From an uncultured bacterium (lineage in GTDB: Bacteria > Patescibacteriota > Dojkabacteria > SC72), in assembly GCA_903840015.1 (NCBI GenBank), contig CAIMEL010000008.1, forward strand, positions 1 through 61,182: DNA of 61,182 nucleotides. The letters run 5' to 3'. Each line of letters starts with the position of its first letter. Position 1 is the stretch's first letter. The notes beneath the pieces were generated by a model. It was not told where the DNA came from. It searched no databases and saw only the letters and a list, made by a program, of their open reading frames with translations. Shown piece after piece: positions 14,208 through 46,703 of this stretch. The position numbers and the translations under genes were made by a program.

Positions 14208-15230
14208 CTATTTAACTTTTGCTTTAACTTCTTTCTCTATCTTCTCTCTCAATTTCTTGTCTTCCCTCAAAACATCTGCAGTTGCCTCTCTTCCCTGTCC
14301 AAGCTGTGCTTCACCATATCTAAACCATGTACCGGCTTTCTGTACGACTCCCATTTCTAATGCAGCATCTAATACACTACTCTCCTTGTCTATGCCCATT
14401 GGATATATCATATTGAAGGTAGCCTCTTTGAATGGAGGAGCAACCTTGTTCTTAACAACCTTAACTTTCCTAGAATGACCAATAACTATACCATCCTTCA
14501 GAATCTTGTCCTTCTGCCTAATATCCATCCTTATGGAAGCATAGAACTTCAAGGCATTTCCACCAGTAGTAGTCTCAGGATTACCAAACATCACCCCTAT
14601 CTTCATTCTCAATTGGTTTAAGAAAATTATCGTTGTACCTGTCTTGCTGCTAATTGCAGTAATTTTTCTCAAAGCTTGGGACATCAAACGAGCCTGTAAT
14701 CCCATATGGCTATCACCCATATCTCCTTCAATCTCTGCACGAGGAGTAAGAGCAGCAACAGAATCAACCACAATCACTCCGAAAGCTGCTGAACGAACCA
14801 AAGTCTCAAGTATTTCAAGAGCTTGCTCACCAAAATCTGGTTGAGAAATGTATAGCTCATCGGTATTCAATCCAATGTTTCTTGCATAGACAGAATCAAA
14901 AGCATGCTCAGCATCTATGAAGGCAACTGCCTCTCCCATTCTCTGTGCTTCTGTTAAGATATGTATAGCAAGAGTTGTTTTACCAGAAGATTCTGGTCCA
15001 TATATTTCAATGATTCTTCCCTTTGGTATTCCACCGACACCCAAAGCAATATCTAAAGAGAGAGCTCCTGTTGGTATAACTTCAGTATCAACTTTTTTCT
15101 GATCACCTAACCTCATAATGGAGCCTTTACCAAACTGCTTTTCAATTTGAGAAACTGCCATCTCTATAGCTTTCTTTTTAGGGGATTCGACAACTTCAAC
15201 CTTCTCTGTATTCTTAACTGTTTCTTTCAT
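14208..15230 (-). CDS. recA: Recombinase RecA
   Basis: [53 protein letters not shown]. Confidence 0.99.
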
Positions 15231-25642: not shown

Positions 25643-25719
25643 GGAGTGGTAGCTCAATTGGTTAGAGCATCTCACTGTCACTGAGAAGGTTGCGGGTTCG
25701 AGTCCCGTCCATTCCGCCA
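25643..25719 (+). tRNA. tRNA-Asp(GUC), CCA encoded
   Basis: Acceptor GGAGTGG/CCATTCC, G73, CCA; anticodon arm TCTCA-ctGTCac-TGAGA. Confidence 0.96.
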
Positions 25720-26376
25720 TACTTCACATGTTCCCACAAGACTCGTTTGCTATGCTTTAAAACCTTTATGGGGATTGAGTTATTTTGTTTCAAAAAGTAA
25801 AGTTTTCAAAATTAAGGCCTGGTGGATGAAATTTGCCTTTTCTGGAGTAGTTTTATGCACCTCTCGGTTCGATGTAGAAAGCCTTTTAAAACTTGATTAT
25901 TTGAATATTCAAAAATCTTACAACCGGTTCCGTTCTCGTTTCTGCCACTTAATTATTGTGGGTAAGTTCGAAAGGGGTCTTACTTTGAGGTTTTAAGAAA
26001 TTAATATGAAGATATTGCTATCATTCTAATTTCAAGTAACGAATCTTACGATTCTCCCTCCGGATGATTACTCACCCTACTTTTTTGACCGTGAGGTCAC
26101 TTCTTCTTGGTGGACACATATGACCCATTCTTCTTCTTTTTTTCGTTCCCTTGTTTTTGAGAAGTCGGTGGGTTTTTCTTTGACTTTTCAGCCATGGCAT
26201 CCTCCTTTCGTAAGAATGGCAGGATTATACCCCATAATATTTACTGTGGGAAGAGTGACTCGTTTCTCTAGTGAACGGTGCTCGAACAAATCGCCTATTT
26301 TTGCTGAATTTTGAAAATAAAATTCCTTTGTTGCTTGCTTTTATTTTCGCTAGTTCGATCCCCGTCCATTCCGCCA
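25720..26376. mobile_element. 657-bp integrase-less mini-island bounded by a duplicated tRNA-Asp 3' end
   Basis: tRNA 3' 24-mer (25696-25719) recurs at 26353-26376 (22/24 identical); the sequence after each copy is also homologous. Confidence 0.65.
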
Positions 26377-26510
26377 CGTTTGTGTTGTTCCGACAAGACC
26401 CGTACACTATCTCTAGGAATCCCTTGGTTGCTTCGTTATTTTCCCCTTAAAAAGTTAATTCTCAATTTCACATCCTGGTGGATGAAATTTGCCATTTCTG
26501 GAGTAGTTTT
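25818..26510 (+). repeat. Direct-repeat core of two degenerate ~230-bp blocks
   Basis: CCTGGTGGATGAAATTTGCC[T/A]TTTCTGGAGTAGTTTT at 25818-25854 and 26474-26510 (36/37 identical). Confidence 0.9.
26097..26195 (-). CDS. 32-aa Lys-rich small protein, absent from the ORF track
   Basis: TATAAT (26229-24), AAAGGAGG (26208-01), 5-nt spacer, ATG: MAEKSKKNPPTSQKQGNEKKKKNGSYVSTKKK-TGA. Confidence 0.6.
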   Translation of the reverse strand: MAEKSKKNPPTSQKQGNEKKKKNGSYVSTKKK

Positions 26511-27494: not shown

Positions 27495-28562
27495 TCATCT
27501 TGGTAAGATAATACCAACCTCTGCAAAGTTCCCCCCTATAACCATCTTCCCTATACTTGGATCAATATTATCATGTATTAATGATAGGCCATCTCCAGAG
27601 AATTCTGGGTTATCATTACCTCCCATATCTGATGAAAACCAATCCCCCTGTACAGTACCATATACATTCTGATGTGGACTTCCACATATTGGTTCTATCG
27701 TTCTAGGTAAAAAGTATTTCTCTTTCCGTTCCTCTAACTTCTTGTCCTCATACTTCTTAAAAGCATATGTTCCAAATTTTGAATACAAAATATCTTTCAA
27801 ATCCCCTGAGTAAAGATCAAACATACAGAAAGCATAGGGGTAGTCATTATAATCATATCTTTCCCAATCAACATTCTTGTCTGGTTCTACATTGTAATTG
27901 AACGCCCAAACCTCTGGAATCTGGTCTATACCGGTCCACGCTATCTGTTCTCCAGCTTTTGACCAATACTCTAACTCATATCCACACTGAGTTATTGTTG
28001 CTTGTCCATCATGTTTACCTTTAGAGGATTTACAATCTGGTTTTACACTGTCAACTTCACTTTGAAGCTTTGGCATTAGTTCTGATACCCCTGCAGCTAC
28101 TACTTTTACTCCTTTACAAAGATTAAAATCAATTGCATAGGTTGTTTGAATAATATCTCCATCCACATCATATGACTTTTCTTGCATGACCTCTGAAATG
28201 ATACTATCCCCCGGAGTATAGAATGGCATACGAGGCCAATCACCCATCTGACCATATCCTTCAAAATATACATGATCTACCGGGAATGTATGACCTGGAG
28301 GATTAGAATTCCCCAGAGGGGTCAATGAAGCTAGATATTCAATATCAATCATTGATACAGTAAGAAGACCTGAGAGGTCGGGAGGACAATCTGGTAGTTT
28401 GTTGCTGTACGAAGAATCCCCATAATGATCTATTTCTTTCTTAATTTGTTCGCCTTTTTCAGGAATTAGAAGAATATAGATTGTGACAGAAAGAATAACG
28501 AAGAGAATGATTAATATCACCCACCAAAACCTTTTAAGAAAGGATTTTAAGATTATCATCAA
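27495..28562 (-). CDS. Membrane-anchored hypothetical protein, possibly C-terminally truncated
   Basis: N-terminal TM, PLGN..PPGHTFPVDHVYF motif, several Cys. Confidence 0.7.
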   Translation of the reverse strand: MMIILKSFLKRFWWVILIILFVILSVTIYILLIPEKGEQIKKEIDHYGDSSYSNKLPDCPPDLSGLLTVSMIDIEYLASLTPLGNSNPPGHTFPVDHVYFEGYGQMGDWPRMPFYTPGDSIISEVMQEKSYDVDGDIIQTTYAIDFNLCKGVKVVAAGVSELMPKLQSEVDSVKPDCKSSKGKHDGQATITQCGYELEYWSKAGEQIAWTGIDQIPEVWAFNYNVEPDKNVDWERYDYNDYPYAFCMFDLYSGDLKDILYSKFGTYAFKKYEDKKLEERKEKYFLPRTIEPICGSPHQNVYGTVQGDWFSSDMGGNDNPEFSGDGLSLIHDNIDPSIGKMVIGGNFAEVGIILPR

Positions 28563-28657: not shown

Positions 28658-29191
28658 ATGGATATCCATTCACTCTTCATTATCTCTTTTCTGTTTTTAG
28701 CAATATTTGGCTCTCTCTTACACTTCACTCATGCTTGGTTCAAGAAAGGAATTCTACTTCACATATTCTCAGCACTAAACGAGAGTACATGGGAACACAT
28801 GAAGTTATTAATAGCTCCAACAATATTCATAGGTATCTTTCAATATCTTGTTCTAAGAGAAAATTTCACTAACATATTTAACTCACTATTAATTCTCCTA
28901 ATTATTGAGCTATTAACAATTCCCCTACTATATGAACCACTCAGGATATTAATTAAAAAAGTGCCATTCCCAATTACAATACTAATCTTCATATTATCAA
29001 TACTCTTTGGTTTAACTGCAGAGTATTTAATGTTAAACAAGGGTATTCTCTTCTTACCGGAACCTGTATCCTTAGTCTTAATATTTATAATAGTGATTAA
29101 ATTTGGGATATTCTCCTACTATCCTCCCAAAATATTCATATTCAAAGATCCCACAACAGGAAGATATGGAGATGTAAAACATCAACAATAG
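28658..29191 (+). CDS. DUF6512-like membrane protein
   Basis: GSLLHFTH...NESTWEHMKL pattern, about 5 TM helices. Confidence 0.65.
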   Translation: MDIHSLFIISFLFLAIFGSLLHFTHAWFKKGILLHIFSALNESTWEHMKLLIAPTIFIGIFQYLVLRENFTNIFNSLLILLIIELLTIPLLYEPLRILIKKVPFPITILIFILSILFGLTAEYLMLNKGILFLPEPVSLVLIFIIVIKFGIFSYYPPKIFIFKDPTTGRYGDVKHQQ

Positions 29192-29251
29192 TTCCTTGCC
29201 CCACCCTCCCTTTTCATATACAATTTACTATTAACATCATACATATTAAAT

Positions 29252-30010
29252 ATGGATAAAACATTTAGGAAATTAAGGATGTACAACATAATCGTTGGAT
29301 TAGTTCTACTACTCCAAGGTATTGTCATGTGGGCAATATCAAATGGTACGAAGGTAATGATTACTACAAATTACTTAAAGTGGAACAGTGACATTGGTTT
29401 CCCTGCCCCTGTACTAAACAACCTCTTCGAATTACAACTAGGTCCTGTTGTAGCACTATTCCTCCTTCTCTCTGGTATATTCCTTCTAGGTTCAGCATTC
29501 ATTTGGAGGAAGAAATATCAAGAACAGATTAGTAAAGGTATGAATCTCTTCAGATGGGCAGAGTATTCCATAACTTCATCCTTAATGCTTGTAGTAATTG
29601 CAACACTCTGTGGTGTATTTGATTTCTCTTCACTAATTCTCATCTTTGCACTAAATGCCTGTATGATATTCTTCGGTTGGGTTATGGAGACACATAATCA
29701 AAATACTAAGGAAGTTAACTGGACATCATATATCTTTGGTTGTTTTGCAGGATTAGTACCTTGGATTGTATTAGGTCTTTACTTCTTCAACGCTATCAAT
29801 TCTAATGCCGAATCAGTACCATCCTTTGTCTATGCAATATTCTGGAGTCTTCTCTTCTTCTTCAATATCTTTGCAGTTAATATGGTTCTACAATACAAAA
29901 AGGTTGGTAAATGGAAAAACTATATCTATGGTGAATATGCATATATCACACTATCATTAATAGCAAAGGCTCTACTTGCGTGGCAGGTATGGGGAGGTAC
30001 GTTGAGATAG
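29252..30010 (+). CDS. Heliorhodopsin
   Basis: 7 TM; NLFRWAEYSITSS (R101, E104), FGWVME, AGLVPW, YGEYAYITLSLIAK (Schiff-base K239); colinear with recalled HeR-48C12. Confidence 0.95.
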   Translation: MDKTFRKLRMYNIIVGLVLLLQGIVMWAISNGTKVMITTNYLKWNSDIGFPAPVLNNLFELQLGPVVALFLLLSGIFLLGSAFIWRKKYQEQISKGMNLFRWAEYSITSSLMLVVIATLCGVFDFSSLILIFALNACMIFFGWVMETHNQNTKEVNWTSYIFGCFAGLVPWIVLGLYFFNAINSNAESVPSFVYAIFWSLLFFFNIFAVNMVLQYKKVGKWKNYIYGEYAYITLSLIAKALLAWQVWGGTLR

Positions 30011-31160: not shown

Positions 31161-33368
31161 ATGGAAACAGACATGCCAGAGAAAAACGAAATAGGTCCTA
31201 GCTGTAGCGAATCTTTCACTACAACAGCAGAACAAAGACAACAACTCTCCTCAGAACTATTTGAACACGCATATAATATCTCCCACAGTGAAGACGATAT
31301 CTTTCTATGTGGAGAGACTGTTTCATCACTAATCACAGGAGCAGAAGACGATCAATCACGCTTTACCTTTTTAGGCGATTTCTATATAGAAGAAATCGCA
31401 AAAAGATATGGCTGTGAAATTACAGAAGAAGGCAGGGTAACTGTTGAAGAAGAAGGAAAGATGTTTGAGTTCATTGCAAGAGAAACATTCGAGAGAGAAT
31501 TCCAATCCTCACATCCATCTGAACGAATTCTCATGAGTAGAGATGGCGGGATAATAGACTATTTTAGAGATATTACCAATTTAAGTAAGGAAGAAATAGA
31601 AGAAATCTTTTCAGACAAACCTGTAAAGATTTTAGCTTTAGAAGCAATTGAAAGAGTTGGTCAACAGGTAAGAACAAATGGTTGGGTAGCAAAAGTTAGA
31701 AATCACGGTTCTCTTGTATTCATAGATCTCAGAGATTTCTCTGGAACAATACAATTAGTGCTAGACAAAGGAAGAGTACCTTTTGCAGACAAAATTGGTT
31801 TAGAGTATGTACTAGAAGCAAGAGGTTTAGTTAAAAAGCGAGAGGAAGGATACGAAAACCCTAAGATTCCAACAGGAGAAATTGAAATTGATGTTCAAGA
31901 TATTAGAGTTCTTAACGAATCCAAGACACCACCATTTCCTTTAGACAAAAGTGGAGAGAAGACCGATGAGAATTTGAGATTAGAGTACAGGTATATTGAT
32001 ATAAGGAGAGAGGCAGTAAGAGAGTTGATAGAAGCAAGACATAGACTTTTGATGCAGACAAGACTATGGTTTGATCAAAACGGTTTTACTGAAGTACAAA
32101 CTCCCCTACTTACAGTAAGTTCTCCAGAGGGAGCAAGAGACTATCTTGTACCAAGTAGACTTTACAATGGAGAATTCTATGCACTTCCACAAGCTCCACA
32201 ACAGTACAAACAGTTACTAATGGTCGGTGGAATGCATCGATATTTCCAAATTGCACCATGTTTCAGAGATGAAGATCCTAGAGCAGACAGACATTCAGGA
32301 GAATTCTATCAAATCGATGCAGAATTCTCATTCATAACTAGAAATGAAATTTTTAGAACTATTGAACCTTACTTTTTAGAAATAGCAAAGAACAGCAAAG
32401 ACAGAAGGTTACTACAGTACAGATTCCCTCGTATTCCATATTCTCAAGTCATTGAAGATTACGGCTTAGACAAACCTGACTTAAGATTTGAGATGTTACT
32501 AGTGGATCTTACAGAAGAATTTAGATCTTCTGAGATGCAGATATTCCAAGCTTCACCTTCAGTAAGAGCTATTGCTGTAGATAGGGAATTTACCAAAAAA
32601 GAGATTGAGGAAATTACAGAGAGAATGAGATTAGAAGGTGCAAAAGGATTAGCTTGGTTTTCATTGGATGAGGGACAGTTTGGTGGTAATATGGCCAAAT
32701 TCTTTAATACTGAATTACAAGAGTCAATCCTCAAGAAACTAAAAGCGAAAGGATACAGTATTAAAGGCAAACAAACTATTTTTGCATTCTCAGATGAATA
32801 TCCAAAAGCATCAAAATATGCAGGATTACTAAGATCGCAGATGGGTGATTTACTCAAATTAAAAGATCCAACTGTATTAGCATTTGCATGGGTTGTAGAT
32901 TTCCCAATGTTCGAATGGGATGAGAAGGGTCAGAAATGGGACTTTGGACACAATCCTTTCTCAATGCCAAAAGGTGGATTAAAAGCCTTAAGAACAGAGA
33001 AACCAGGAGAAATATCAGCAGAGCAATTTGACTTGGTATGTAATGGTTATGAACTTGCAAGTGGTTCCATTAGAAATCATGACCCTAAGACATTCATAGA
33101 GGCATTTAAAATTGTAGGATATTCAGAAGAAGAAACAAGATCTAGATTTGGTCATATGATTTCTGCATTTGAATACGGAGCTCCACCACACGGAGGATTT
33201 GCTATTGGATTTGATAGATTTATGATGTTGCTCTACGGTATTACAAATATCAAAGATGTATATGCATTCCCAAAAACAAATGCAAAGGAACTCATGACAG
33301 GAGCACCAAGACGTGTACCACAGGAAGATCTAGATGTTTTGGGAATTACAATCAAGGGGAAAAAATAG
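31161..33368 (+). CDS. aspS: Aspartate--tRNA ligase (likely non-discriminating) with ~155-aa N-terminal extra domain
   Basis: GWVAKVRNHG..FIDLRD, PEGARDY, LPQAPQQYKQ, FRDEDPRADR, GYELASGSIR, GAPPHGG; His in RNHG and Gly in EEGYEN match ND-AspRS. Confidence 0.93.
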   Translation: METDMPEKNEIGPSCSESFTTTAEQRQQLSSELFEHAYNISHSEDDIFLCGETVSSLITGAEDDQSRFTFLGDFYIEEIAKRYGCEITEEGRVTVEEEGKMFEFIARETFEREFQSSHPSERILMSRDGGIIDYFRDITNLSKEEIEEIFSDKPVKILALEAIERVGQQVRTNGWVAKVRNHGSLVFIDLRDFSGTIQLVLDKGRVPFADKIGLEYVLEARGLVKKREEGYENPKIPTGEIEIDVQDIRVLNESKTPPFPLDKSGEKTDENLRLEYRYIDIRREAVRELIEARHRLLMQTRLWFDQNGFTEVQTPLLTVSSPEGARDYLVPSRLYNGEFYALPQAPQQYKQLLMVGGMHRYFQIAPCFRDEDPRADRHSGEFYQIDAEFSFITRNEIFRTIEPYFLEIAKNSKDRRLLQYRFPRIPYSQVIEDYGLDKPDLRFEMLLVDLTEEFRSSEMQIFQASPSVRAIAVDREFTKKEIEEITERMRLEGAKGLAWFSLDEGQFGGNMAKFFNTELQESILKKLKAKGYSIKGKQTIFAFSDEYPKASKYAGLLRSQMGDLLKLKDPTVLAFAWVVDFPMFEWDEKGQKWDFGHNPFSMPKGGLKALRTEKPGEISAEQFDLVCNGYELASGSIRNHDPKTFIEAFKIVGYSEEETRSRFGHMISAFEYGAPPHGGFAIGFDRFMMLLYGITNIKDVYAFPKTNAKELMTGAPRRVPQEDLDVLGITIKGKK

Positions 33369-46271: not shown

Positions 46272-46703
46272 ATGAATATAAAAATTAAGAGATTCGACAA
46301 AGAGCTACCAATACCCGAATACAAAAGTGAAGGGGCTGTAGCATTAGATCTCTACTCTAGGACTGACATATCAATACAACCTGGTGAGGTAGTCTTAATT
46401 CCTCTAAACATTGCAGTAGAAATCCCAAAAGGATATTTCATACTCCTAGTCAACAGAAGCTCTACATACAAACTTGGAATTACCTGCGTAAATGGACTTG
46501 GCATTGGAGACTACGACTACTGTGGAGACAATGATGAATACAAATTCCCAGCATTAAACTACACCAATCAAGAAGTAACTATCGAGAAAGGGACTCGCTG
46601 CTGTCAGATGTTAATTCTACCCATAGAGAGAGCAGATATTACCGAAGTTGACAAACTTGCAAACTCAGACAGAGGAGGATTTGGATCAACTGGAAACAGA
46701 TAA
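46272..46703 (+). CDS. dut: Trimeric dUTPase
   Basis: ALDL, NRSS, GIGDYDY.G, Q.LILP, RGGFGSTG. Confidence 0.9.
   Translation: MNIKIKRFDKELPIPEYKSEGAVALDLYSRTDISIQPGEVVLIPLNIAVEIPKGYFILLVNRSSTYKLGITCVNGLGIGDYDYCGDNDEYKFPALNYTNQEVTIEKGTRCCQMLILPIERADITEVDKLANSDRGGFGSTGNR

Follow-up and report, generated by a model that had tools for sequence, protein, structure and literature searches.

Heliorhodopsins (HeRs) contain two cavity histidines, H23 and H80 in HeR-48C12, that have been described as highly conserved, with Asn/Asn as the sole exception mentioned (Kovalev et al., PMC7049168). In 48C12, H23 and H80 were proposed to serve as terminal proton acceptor and relay; the H23F and H80F mutants both have a slower photocycle, and H80F lacks the O state (PMC9726877). 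The double mutant H23F/H82F of TaHeR still forms M, which accumulates to a lower level, according to later papers that cite Shihoya et al. 2019. A natural counterpart of this double change is HULAa30F3, encoded on a Dehalococcoidia fosmid, in which both conserved histidines are replaced by leucine. HULAa30F3 was expressed and followed by flash photolysis; it absorbs at 562 nm, forms little M and has a long-lived O, resembling TaHeR H23F/H82F (Chazan et al., bioRxiv 10.1101/2021.02.16.431466). HeRs of the CPR were also known previously (Chiriac et al., PMC9166423; Bulzu et al.), and neither report discusses positions H23 and H80. The function of HeRs and the role of His23 and His80 are still open questions in the field.

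Here we describe a CPR heliorhodopsin gene in which leucine occupies both histidine positions (Leu/Leu, as opposed to His/His). It is no new kind of protein, and it leads to a large natural clade in which both histidines have been lost.

The heliorhodopsin gene and its two leucines

The window, by which we mean the whole 61,182-nt stretch of DNA analysed, is the entire contig C8 of a 680,604-bp genome that is 96.6% complete. The HeR open reading frame (Table 1) matches the Pfam model PF18761 with 302.2 bits (cut-off 26.7) over model positions 1–242, which is the full model, and the NCBIfam model NF038020 ("HeR") with 305.2 bits (cut-off 100). Among solved structures the best match is TaHeR (6is6, E = 4e-67), and HeR-48C12 (6su3) matches with E = 2.5e-57. 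The AF2 model, computed from 66 homologues with a pLDDT of 87.6, contains seven helices and the AB β-hairpin (strands E34–45 and E50–62), and superimposes well on 6is6 (TM 0.89 at 46% identity) and on 6uh3 (TM 0.85). The protein is predicted to have the inverted topology with a cytoplasmic N-terminus. The positive-inside count fits this prediction, as 13 of the 16 Lys and Arg residues are in the N-terminus and the BC, DE and FG loops, and the remaining three are in the AB, CD and EF loops and the C-terminus.

The alignment shows that N12, Q22, S74, Y89, N98, R101, E104, Y105, E146, E228, S235, K239 and W244 are all kept, and R101 and E104 are invariant in 120 of 120 homologues. The gene thus encodes a genuine, intact seven-helix HeR in which the other polar residues of the Schiff-base cavity are conserved.

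Table 1 Features of the heliorhodopsin locus, in window positions
Feature	Position	Strand	Basis
DUF6512 membrane protein, 177 aa	28658..29191	+	PF20122, 68.8 bits (cut-off 26); alignments; AF2 model
60-nt spacer between DUF6512 and HeR genes	29192..29251	+	sequence read
Heliorhodopsin gene, Leu/Leu (histidine-less) subtype, 252 aa	29252..30010	+	PF18761; NF038020; AF2 model
Codon CTA, L19, position of HeR-48C12 H23, helix A	29306..29308	+	alignments; codon read
Codon CTT, L78, position of HeR-48C12 H80 and TaHeR H82, helix B	29483..29485	+	alignment; S74+4 rule; codon read
R101 and E104, Arg and Schiff-base counterion, helix C	29552..29563	+	codons read; alignment
S235-L-I-A-K239, retinal-binding SxxxK motif, helix G	29954..29968	+	alignments; codons read

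The initial annotation had placed L19 and L78 at the positions of H23 and H80 and had stated that the counterion E104, R101 and the retinal lysine K239 are retained. Both assignments hold when checked against the alignments and the codons. L19 lies opposite 48C12 H23 in all alignments made. The H80 column needs care because 48C12 is one residue longer than TaHeR in this region and MAFFT --auto shifts it, displacing the column by one in three runs; we therefore used L-INS-i together with the S74+4 rule. In the L-INS-i alignment L78 falls in the H80 column. L78 is also four residues after S74 (48C12 S76) and 11 before Y89, a spacing identical to that of TaHeR H82.

The Leu/Leu subfamily and the origin of the window copy

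The count of double substitutions that had been suggested as a check on the variant was made on a nearest-relative set of 120 clusters (90% identity) from a 5.8-billion-protein collection. All 108 full-length proteins in this set, at 58–98% identity to the window protein, are Leu/Leu; five other clusters, at 61% identity or less, are His/His, and the remainder are N-terminally truncated. The clade in which Leu/Leu is fixed comprises at least 115 protein clusters (90% identity) that diverge to 58% identity. The natural double His-to-Leu variant that had been proposed is therefore real, but neither unique, in view of these clusters, nor undescribed, as HULAa30F3 has been measured. Double-Leu variants are common, a finding that goes against the significance first attached to the gene; the measured HULAa30F3, however, is unlike wild type. 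The Leu/Leu state defines a large natural subfamily, and because the gene comes from this subfamily and measurements exist for another protein with both replacements, it is an ordinary member of a known variant. What is new here is how large the clade is, which columns mark it and how it is distributed in the CPR, the kind itself being known already.

The CPR Leu/Leu proteins form a single clade with a support of 100 in FastTree and IQ-TREE analyses (trees of 365 and 161 sequences). The clade is nested among His/His HeRs, and its sister is the His/His protein P0113. Its signature columns, in 48C12 numbering, are H23L, H80L, A77G, I82G, S111T and V235T, together with several Trp and Cys positions. 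The co-varying changes A77G, I82G, S111T and V235T sit around the counterion, to which S111 of 48C12 donates a hydrogen bond (PMC9726877), and could change the photochemical outcome. Among the 365 sequences Leu at position 80 is always paired with Leu at position 23, while position 23 varies alone. In the best 150 representatives at 50% identity, position 23 is His, Tyr, Phe, Leu or Gln, and His predominates at position 80. A large natural clade has thus lost both histidines in a way that is stable, coupled and strictly maintained and that goes with specific changes around the counterion, and this clade constitutes a natural experiment for the proposed proton relay from His80 to His23.

A second, related Leu/Leu group is found in Geothermincolia-type Actinomycetota MAGs (Solincola, Geothermincola secundus, SURF_21, fen_727 and others), where it is accompanied by His/His relatives such as that of Geothermincola primus. 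Free trees split the Actinomycetota group from the CPR clade and require two to three changes. Constraining all 43 Leu/Leu rows to a single clade does not make the tree worse (log-likelihood +8.95, AU p = 0.565). Between one and three origins of the Leu/Leu state are therefore possible within the sampled sequences.

We also considered how the gene came to be in this genome. The contig belongs to the genus to which the genome is assigned, since its genes at 14–19 kb are 48–85% identical to those of same-genus genomes. One gene of this region, a RecA-like gene at 14211–15230 (minus strand), has its nearest named relatives (82–83% identity) among sequences labelled Candidatus Saccharibacteria. 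A HeR gene is present in 3 of 23 genomes of the genus, the other two copies being His/His, and in 86 of 201 sampled genomes of the class. With the window copy and one fragment too short to read left out of the count, all 84 other readable HeRs of the class have His at position 80, and they are His/His save two with Tyr at position 23. In 401 sampled genomes of the phylum, the relatives at 66–75% identity belong to families of other classes (f30 and f133). Contigs that carry the closest HeRs (80–83% identity) have almost no other genes in common with the window genome, the dUTPase excepted, which adjoins the HeR on those contigs and lies 16 kb from it in the window. Because every other readable HeR of the class has His at position 80, it is likely, as far as species-representative sampling reaches, that the window HeR was laterally acquired from another CPR class; vertical carriage by close relatives outside the species-representative sample could also explain its presence. 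A transfer of this kind would mean that HeR types move between CPR lineages unable to make retinal.

The dUTPase/DCD paralogue at 46272–46700 (plus strand) is 79% identical to a dUTPase that lies 1.3 kb from the Leu/Leu HeR of locus L049. Within the genus, this type is found only in the window genome and in G120, the others having a paralogue at 33–39% identity. The window dUTPase may have been acquired together with the HeR.

A search for island boundaries returned only a duplicated tRNA-Asp 3′ end and no third copy flanking the HeR. The 3′ end at 25696–25753 is repeated at 26353–26410, 657 nt downstream, with 76% identity. As there is no further tRNA-Asp copy at the HeR, no island boundary was drawn. 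Genus synteny did not show a clean empty site for the HeR gene either, because DUF6512 has different neighbours in each of the six relatives and rearrangement has affected the AspRS region. Some relatives in the same class have HeR matches with in-frame stops or reduced to C-terminal remnants (G068:C3:42585-43343, G079:C4:35400-35696 and G007:C2:105758-105919), which suggests ongoing gene loss in the class.

DUF6512 and other neighbours

The claim that a DUF6512-like gene lies upstream of the HeR in the same orientation is borne out by the PF20122 match, and the gap is exactly 60 nt. The spacer has no terminator-like hairpin and no Shine-Dalgarno sequence. A promoter-like TTGCCC-17-TACAAT at 29196–29224 is weak, and promoter-like hits are not above shuffle expectation. 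On the other side of the DUF6512 gene, between it and an alpha/beta hydrolase gene, a 355-aa ORF (27495–28562, minus strand) has no Pfam or NCBIfam match.

The AF2 model of the DUF6512 protein (pLDDT 94.2) has five long and two short helices. Residues H22, N41, E42, S43, W45, E46, H47 and K49 are invariant in 54 sequences, and the conserved motif is located on the short helices between the first two long helices. The invariant H...NES.WEH.K pattern suggests a catalytic or ligand-binding site. No PDB entry matched the DUF6512 protein, either in a sequence-profile search or with Foldseek (best Foldseek E 0.78). A relationship to DUF2177 was rejected, as the hhalign profile–profile probability is 0.6%.

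Other HeRs regulate a glutamine synthetase, photolyase or ABC transporter encoded adjacent to them. DUF6512 and the HeR might likewise form a functional pair, in which a light-sensing HeR binds or regulates the DUF6512 membrane protein, a reading that we consider doubtful. In its favor, the two window genes are co-oriented and close together with no intervening terminator, and an iterated HMM scan found the same association elsewhere. In the "Eisenbacteria"-labelled, unrelated MAG of locus L176, DUF6512 is 134 nt upstream of a Leu/Leu HeR and co-oriented, and in a Saccharofermentans MAG (L034) it is 2.2 kb from a His/His HeR. The two genes are adjacent or near-adjacent in the Asgard-type loci L364, L377, L278 and L282. 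The HMM took over from a tblastn search of the window DUF6512 against HeR loci, which gave no match and was under-powered, a true family member reaching only E = 0.01.

Seen from the DUF6512 side, a HeR is nearby in 5 of 160 sampled loci, comprising 3 of 80 loci of species representatives (within 4 kb) and 2 of 80 metagenome loci (within 3 kb). Chance expectation is well under 1 by a rough estimate, which is not a computed statistic: one randomly placed HeR per genome would fall within 4 kb in about 0.3% of loci. Four of the five HeR-linked loci are Asgard-type, and there the arrangement varies while the linkage persists.

Against a functional pair, more than 95% of DUF6512 loci have no nearby HeR, and many of these are from gut Clostridia. 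Of the 23 genus genomes, 14 have DUF6512, and 11 of these 14 lack a HeR; both members of the genus that carry a His/His HeR have DUF6512 on another contig, and its neighbours differ in each of six genus relatives. The pairing is also absent at all of the roughly 20 other CPR Leu/Leu loci and at all 85 other HeR loci of the class. Synteny had been proposed as a check of the partnership, and neither the closest Leu/Leu relatives nor the genus gave it support, both being without linkage; what is left of the proposal is a weak lead, the linkage in four distant lineages.

We conclude that DUF6512 is a resident gene of the genus and that its association with HeR is weak but non-random: recurrent, not obligate, and facultative at best, because most DUF6512 and HeR loci are unlinked. 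Recurrence elsewhere is no evidence on the gene pair of the window itself. The recurrent neighbourhood nevertheless hints at a HeR partner and gives a new gene-neighbourhood lead for HeRs. The published survey of HeR neighbours used Pfam 33.1, a release that we take to be older than PF20122, so it presumably could not have seen DUF6512, and our literature search found no mention of this family. DUF6512 might be an unnoticed, facultative membrane partner or effector of HeRs in both Bacteria and Archaea (CPR, the "Eisenbacteria"-labelled MAG, Clostridia and Asgard archaea), and the Leu/Leu HeR of the window would have been recruited for that reason. We regard this broader proposal as unlikely. 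If it were true, the invariant His/Glu/His/Lys motif and the fold without a solved match would be signs of a novel membrane activity under light control.

No neighbouring gene proved to be conserved among the CPR Leu/Leu loci. The neighbours are mostly housekeeping genes and include FtsA-like, AlaRS-like, class II aminoacyl-tRNA synthetase, SMC, dUTPase and DUF2177 genes. DUF2177 and DegV are published characteristic neighbours of HeRs, DUF2177 having been reported beside HeRs by Chazan et al. (bioRxiv 10.1101/2021.02.16.431466). That association is reproduced here, as DUF2177 adjoins the HeR in nine loci (L001, L024, L066, L072, L081, L161, L197, L212 and L234). Among the species-representative genomes found to carry a Leu/Leu HeR, L001 is the closest, and there the DUF2177 gene (L001:1017-1412) is directly upstream of the HeR and co-oriented.

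On L164, a 721-kb CPR metagenome contig, a Pyr_excise gene (PF03013, a T4 endonuclease V-like UV-dimer glycosylase; L164:3657-3986) stops 15 nt before the Leu/Leu HeR, which fits the published links of HeRs to light-damage repair. A class II aminoacyl-tRNA synthetase gene (tRNA-synt_2) is directly upstream of the Leu/Leu HeRs on two large CPR contigs (L163:2453-3847 and L164:2259-3653). In the window, an AspRS gene (31161–33368) is 1.15 kb downstream of the HeR. Its N-terminal extension of about 155 residues (31161–31625) is specific to the window genome among those checked, as the orthologues in G076 and G048 align only from residue 150–156; five other members of the genus have no AspRS match at E ≤ 1e-50.

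Proposed function and comparison with described heliorhodopsins

Judged from its sequence and model, the gene probably encodes a functional HeR of the histidine-less, Leu/Leu subfamily. The protein would bind all-trans retinal that other cells have made. In the genome, which is 96.6% complete, neither phytoene synthase (PF00494; positive control matched in 8 of 14 genomes) nor carotenoid oxygenase (PF03055; positive control matched in 2 genomes) has a match. Blh (PF15461) and type-1 rhodopsin (PF01036) have none either, the positive controls for these two being likewise silent. Of the blh/crt search that had been suggested, the crt part returned no match beside a working control, and the blh part none beside a silent one. 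Since there is no match to a carotenoid or retinal pathway, it is a reasonable inference that the organism scavenges its retinal, as had been claimed. Scavenging fits the published views on CPR rhodopsins (Jaffe et al., PMC9296517), and blh is rare near HeRs in the published neighbour survey.

Without the His80...His23 relay, the Schiff-base proton would have no histidine acceptor. The photocycle would nevertheless persist and, by analogy with HULAa30F3, one natural protein of another branch, and with one mutant, TaHeR H23F/H82F, it should show little M and a long-lived O-like state, with absorption that is probably red-shifted. The protein would most likely be a slow light sensor or regulator that acts via protein contacts. 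Its lineage would have acquired the HeR from another CPR class, and the gene now adjoins the resident DUF6512 gene.

A competing possibility is that the Leu/Leu proteins are degenerate HeRs, retinal-free or photochemically dead scaffolds that have taken another role in the membrane. Both putative proton-relay histidines are gone, and record titles, such as SURF_21 and those of hot-spring sediment MAGs, point to a dark or subsurface source for several Leu/Leu carriers, but His/His HeRs come from similar dark samples as well (SURF_19, locus L199, and rumen Methanomassiliicoccales). Furthermore, the clade shows no variation at K239, E104, S74, S235, W102, Y105 and further conserved residues, and HULAa30F3 makes a pigment and photocycles. 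Degeneration is therefore very improbable. That the Leu/Leu state is a private, recent peculiarity of the window organism with novel photochemistry, as its sole occurrence among the 86 HeR-bearing genomes of the class might suggest, has next to no probability and is refuted by the state being clade-wide, with at least 115 clusters down to 58% identity, by its presence in other CPR classes and in Actinomycetota, and by the published HULAa30F3.

We compare the window protein, as a probably functional Leu/Leu HeR, with the closest described systems. HULAa30F3 is alike in that the histidines of helices 1 and 2 are both Leu and the lysine and counterion are kept. The two differ in placement: HULAa30F3 is from Chloroflexi and was assigned by its authors to group A (48C12-like), whereas the window clade is from CPR and TaHeR-like, and the window protein is nearer to TaHeR (46% identity) than to 48C12 (42%). 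HULAa30F3 also has a DegV neighbour, and there is none beside the window HeR. DUF2177 is a small membrane protein directly upstream of the HeR in many phyla; in the window, DUF6512 holds that place.

TaHeR provides the closest solved structure, and its H23F/H82F mutant exchanges the same two histidines for hydrophobic residues. TaHeR itself, however, is His/His in nature, and the window clade adds S111T, V235T, A77G and I82G around the counterion. With 48C12 (6su3, 6su4 and 6uh3) the window HeR shares the fold and the cavity residues N16, Y92, N101, R104, E107, Y108, E230 and S237 (48C12 numbering), and the Gln26/Trp246 cluster of 48C12 is also present. The differences from 48C12 are the replacement of H23 and H80 by the Leu/Leu pair and of Gln213 by Met.
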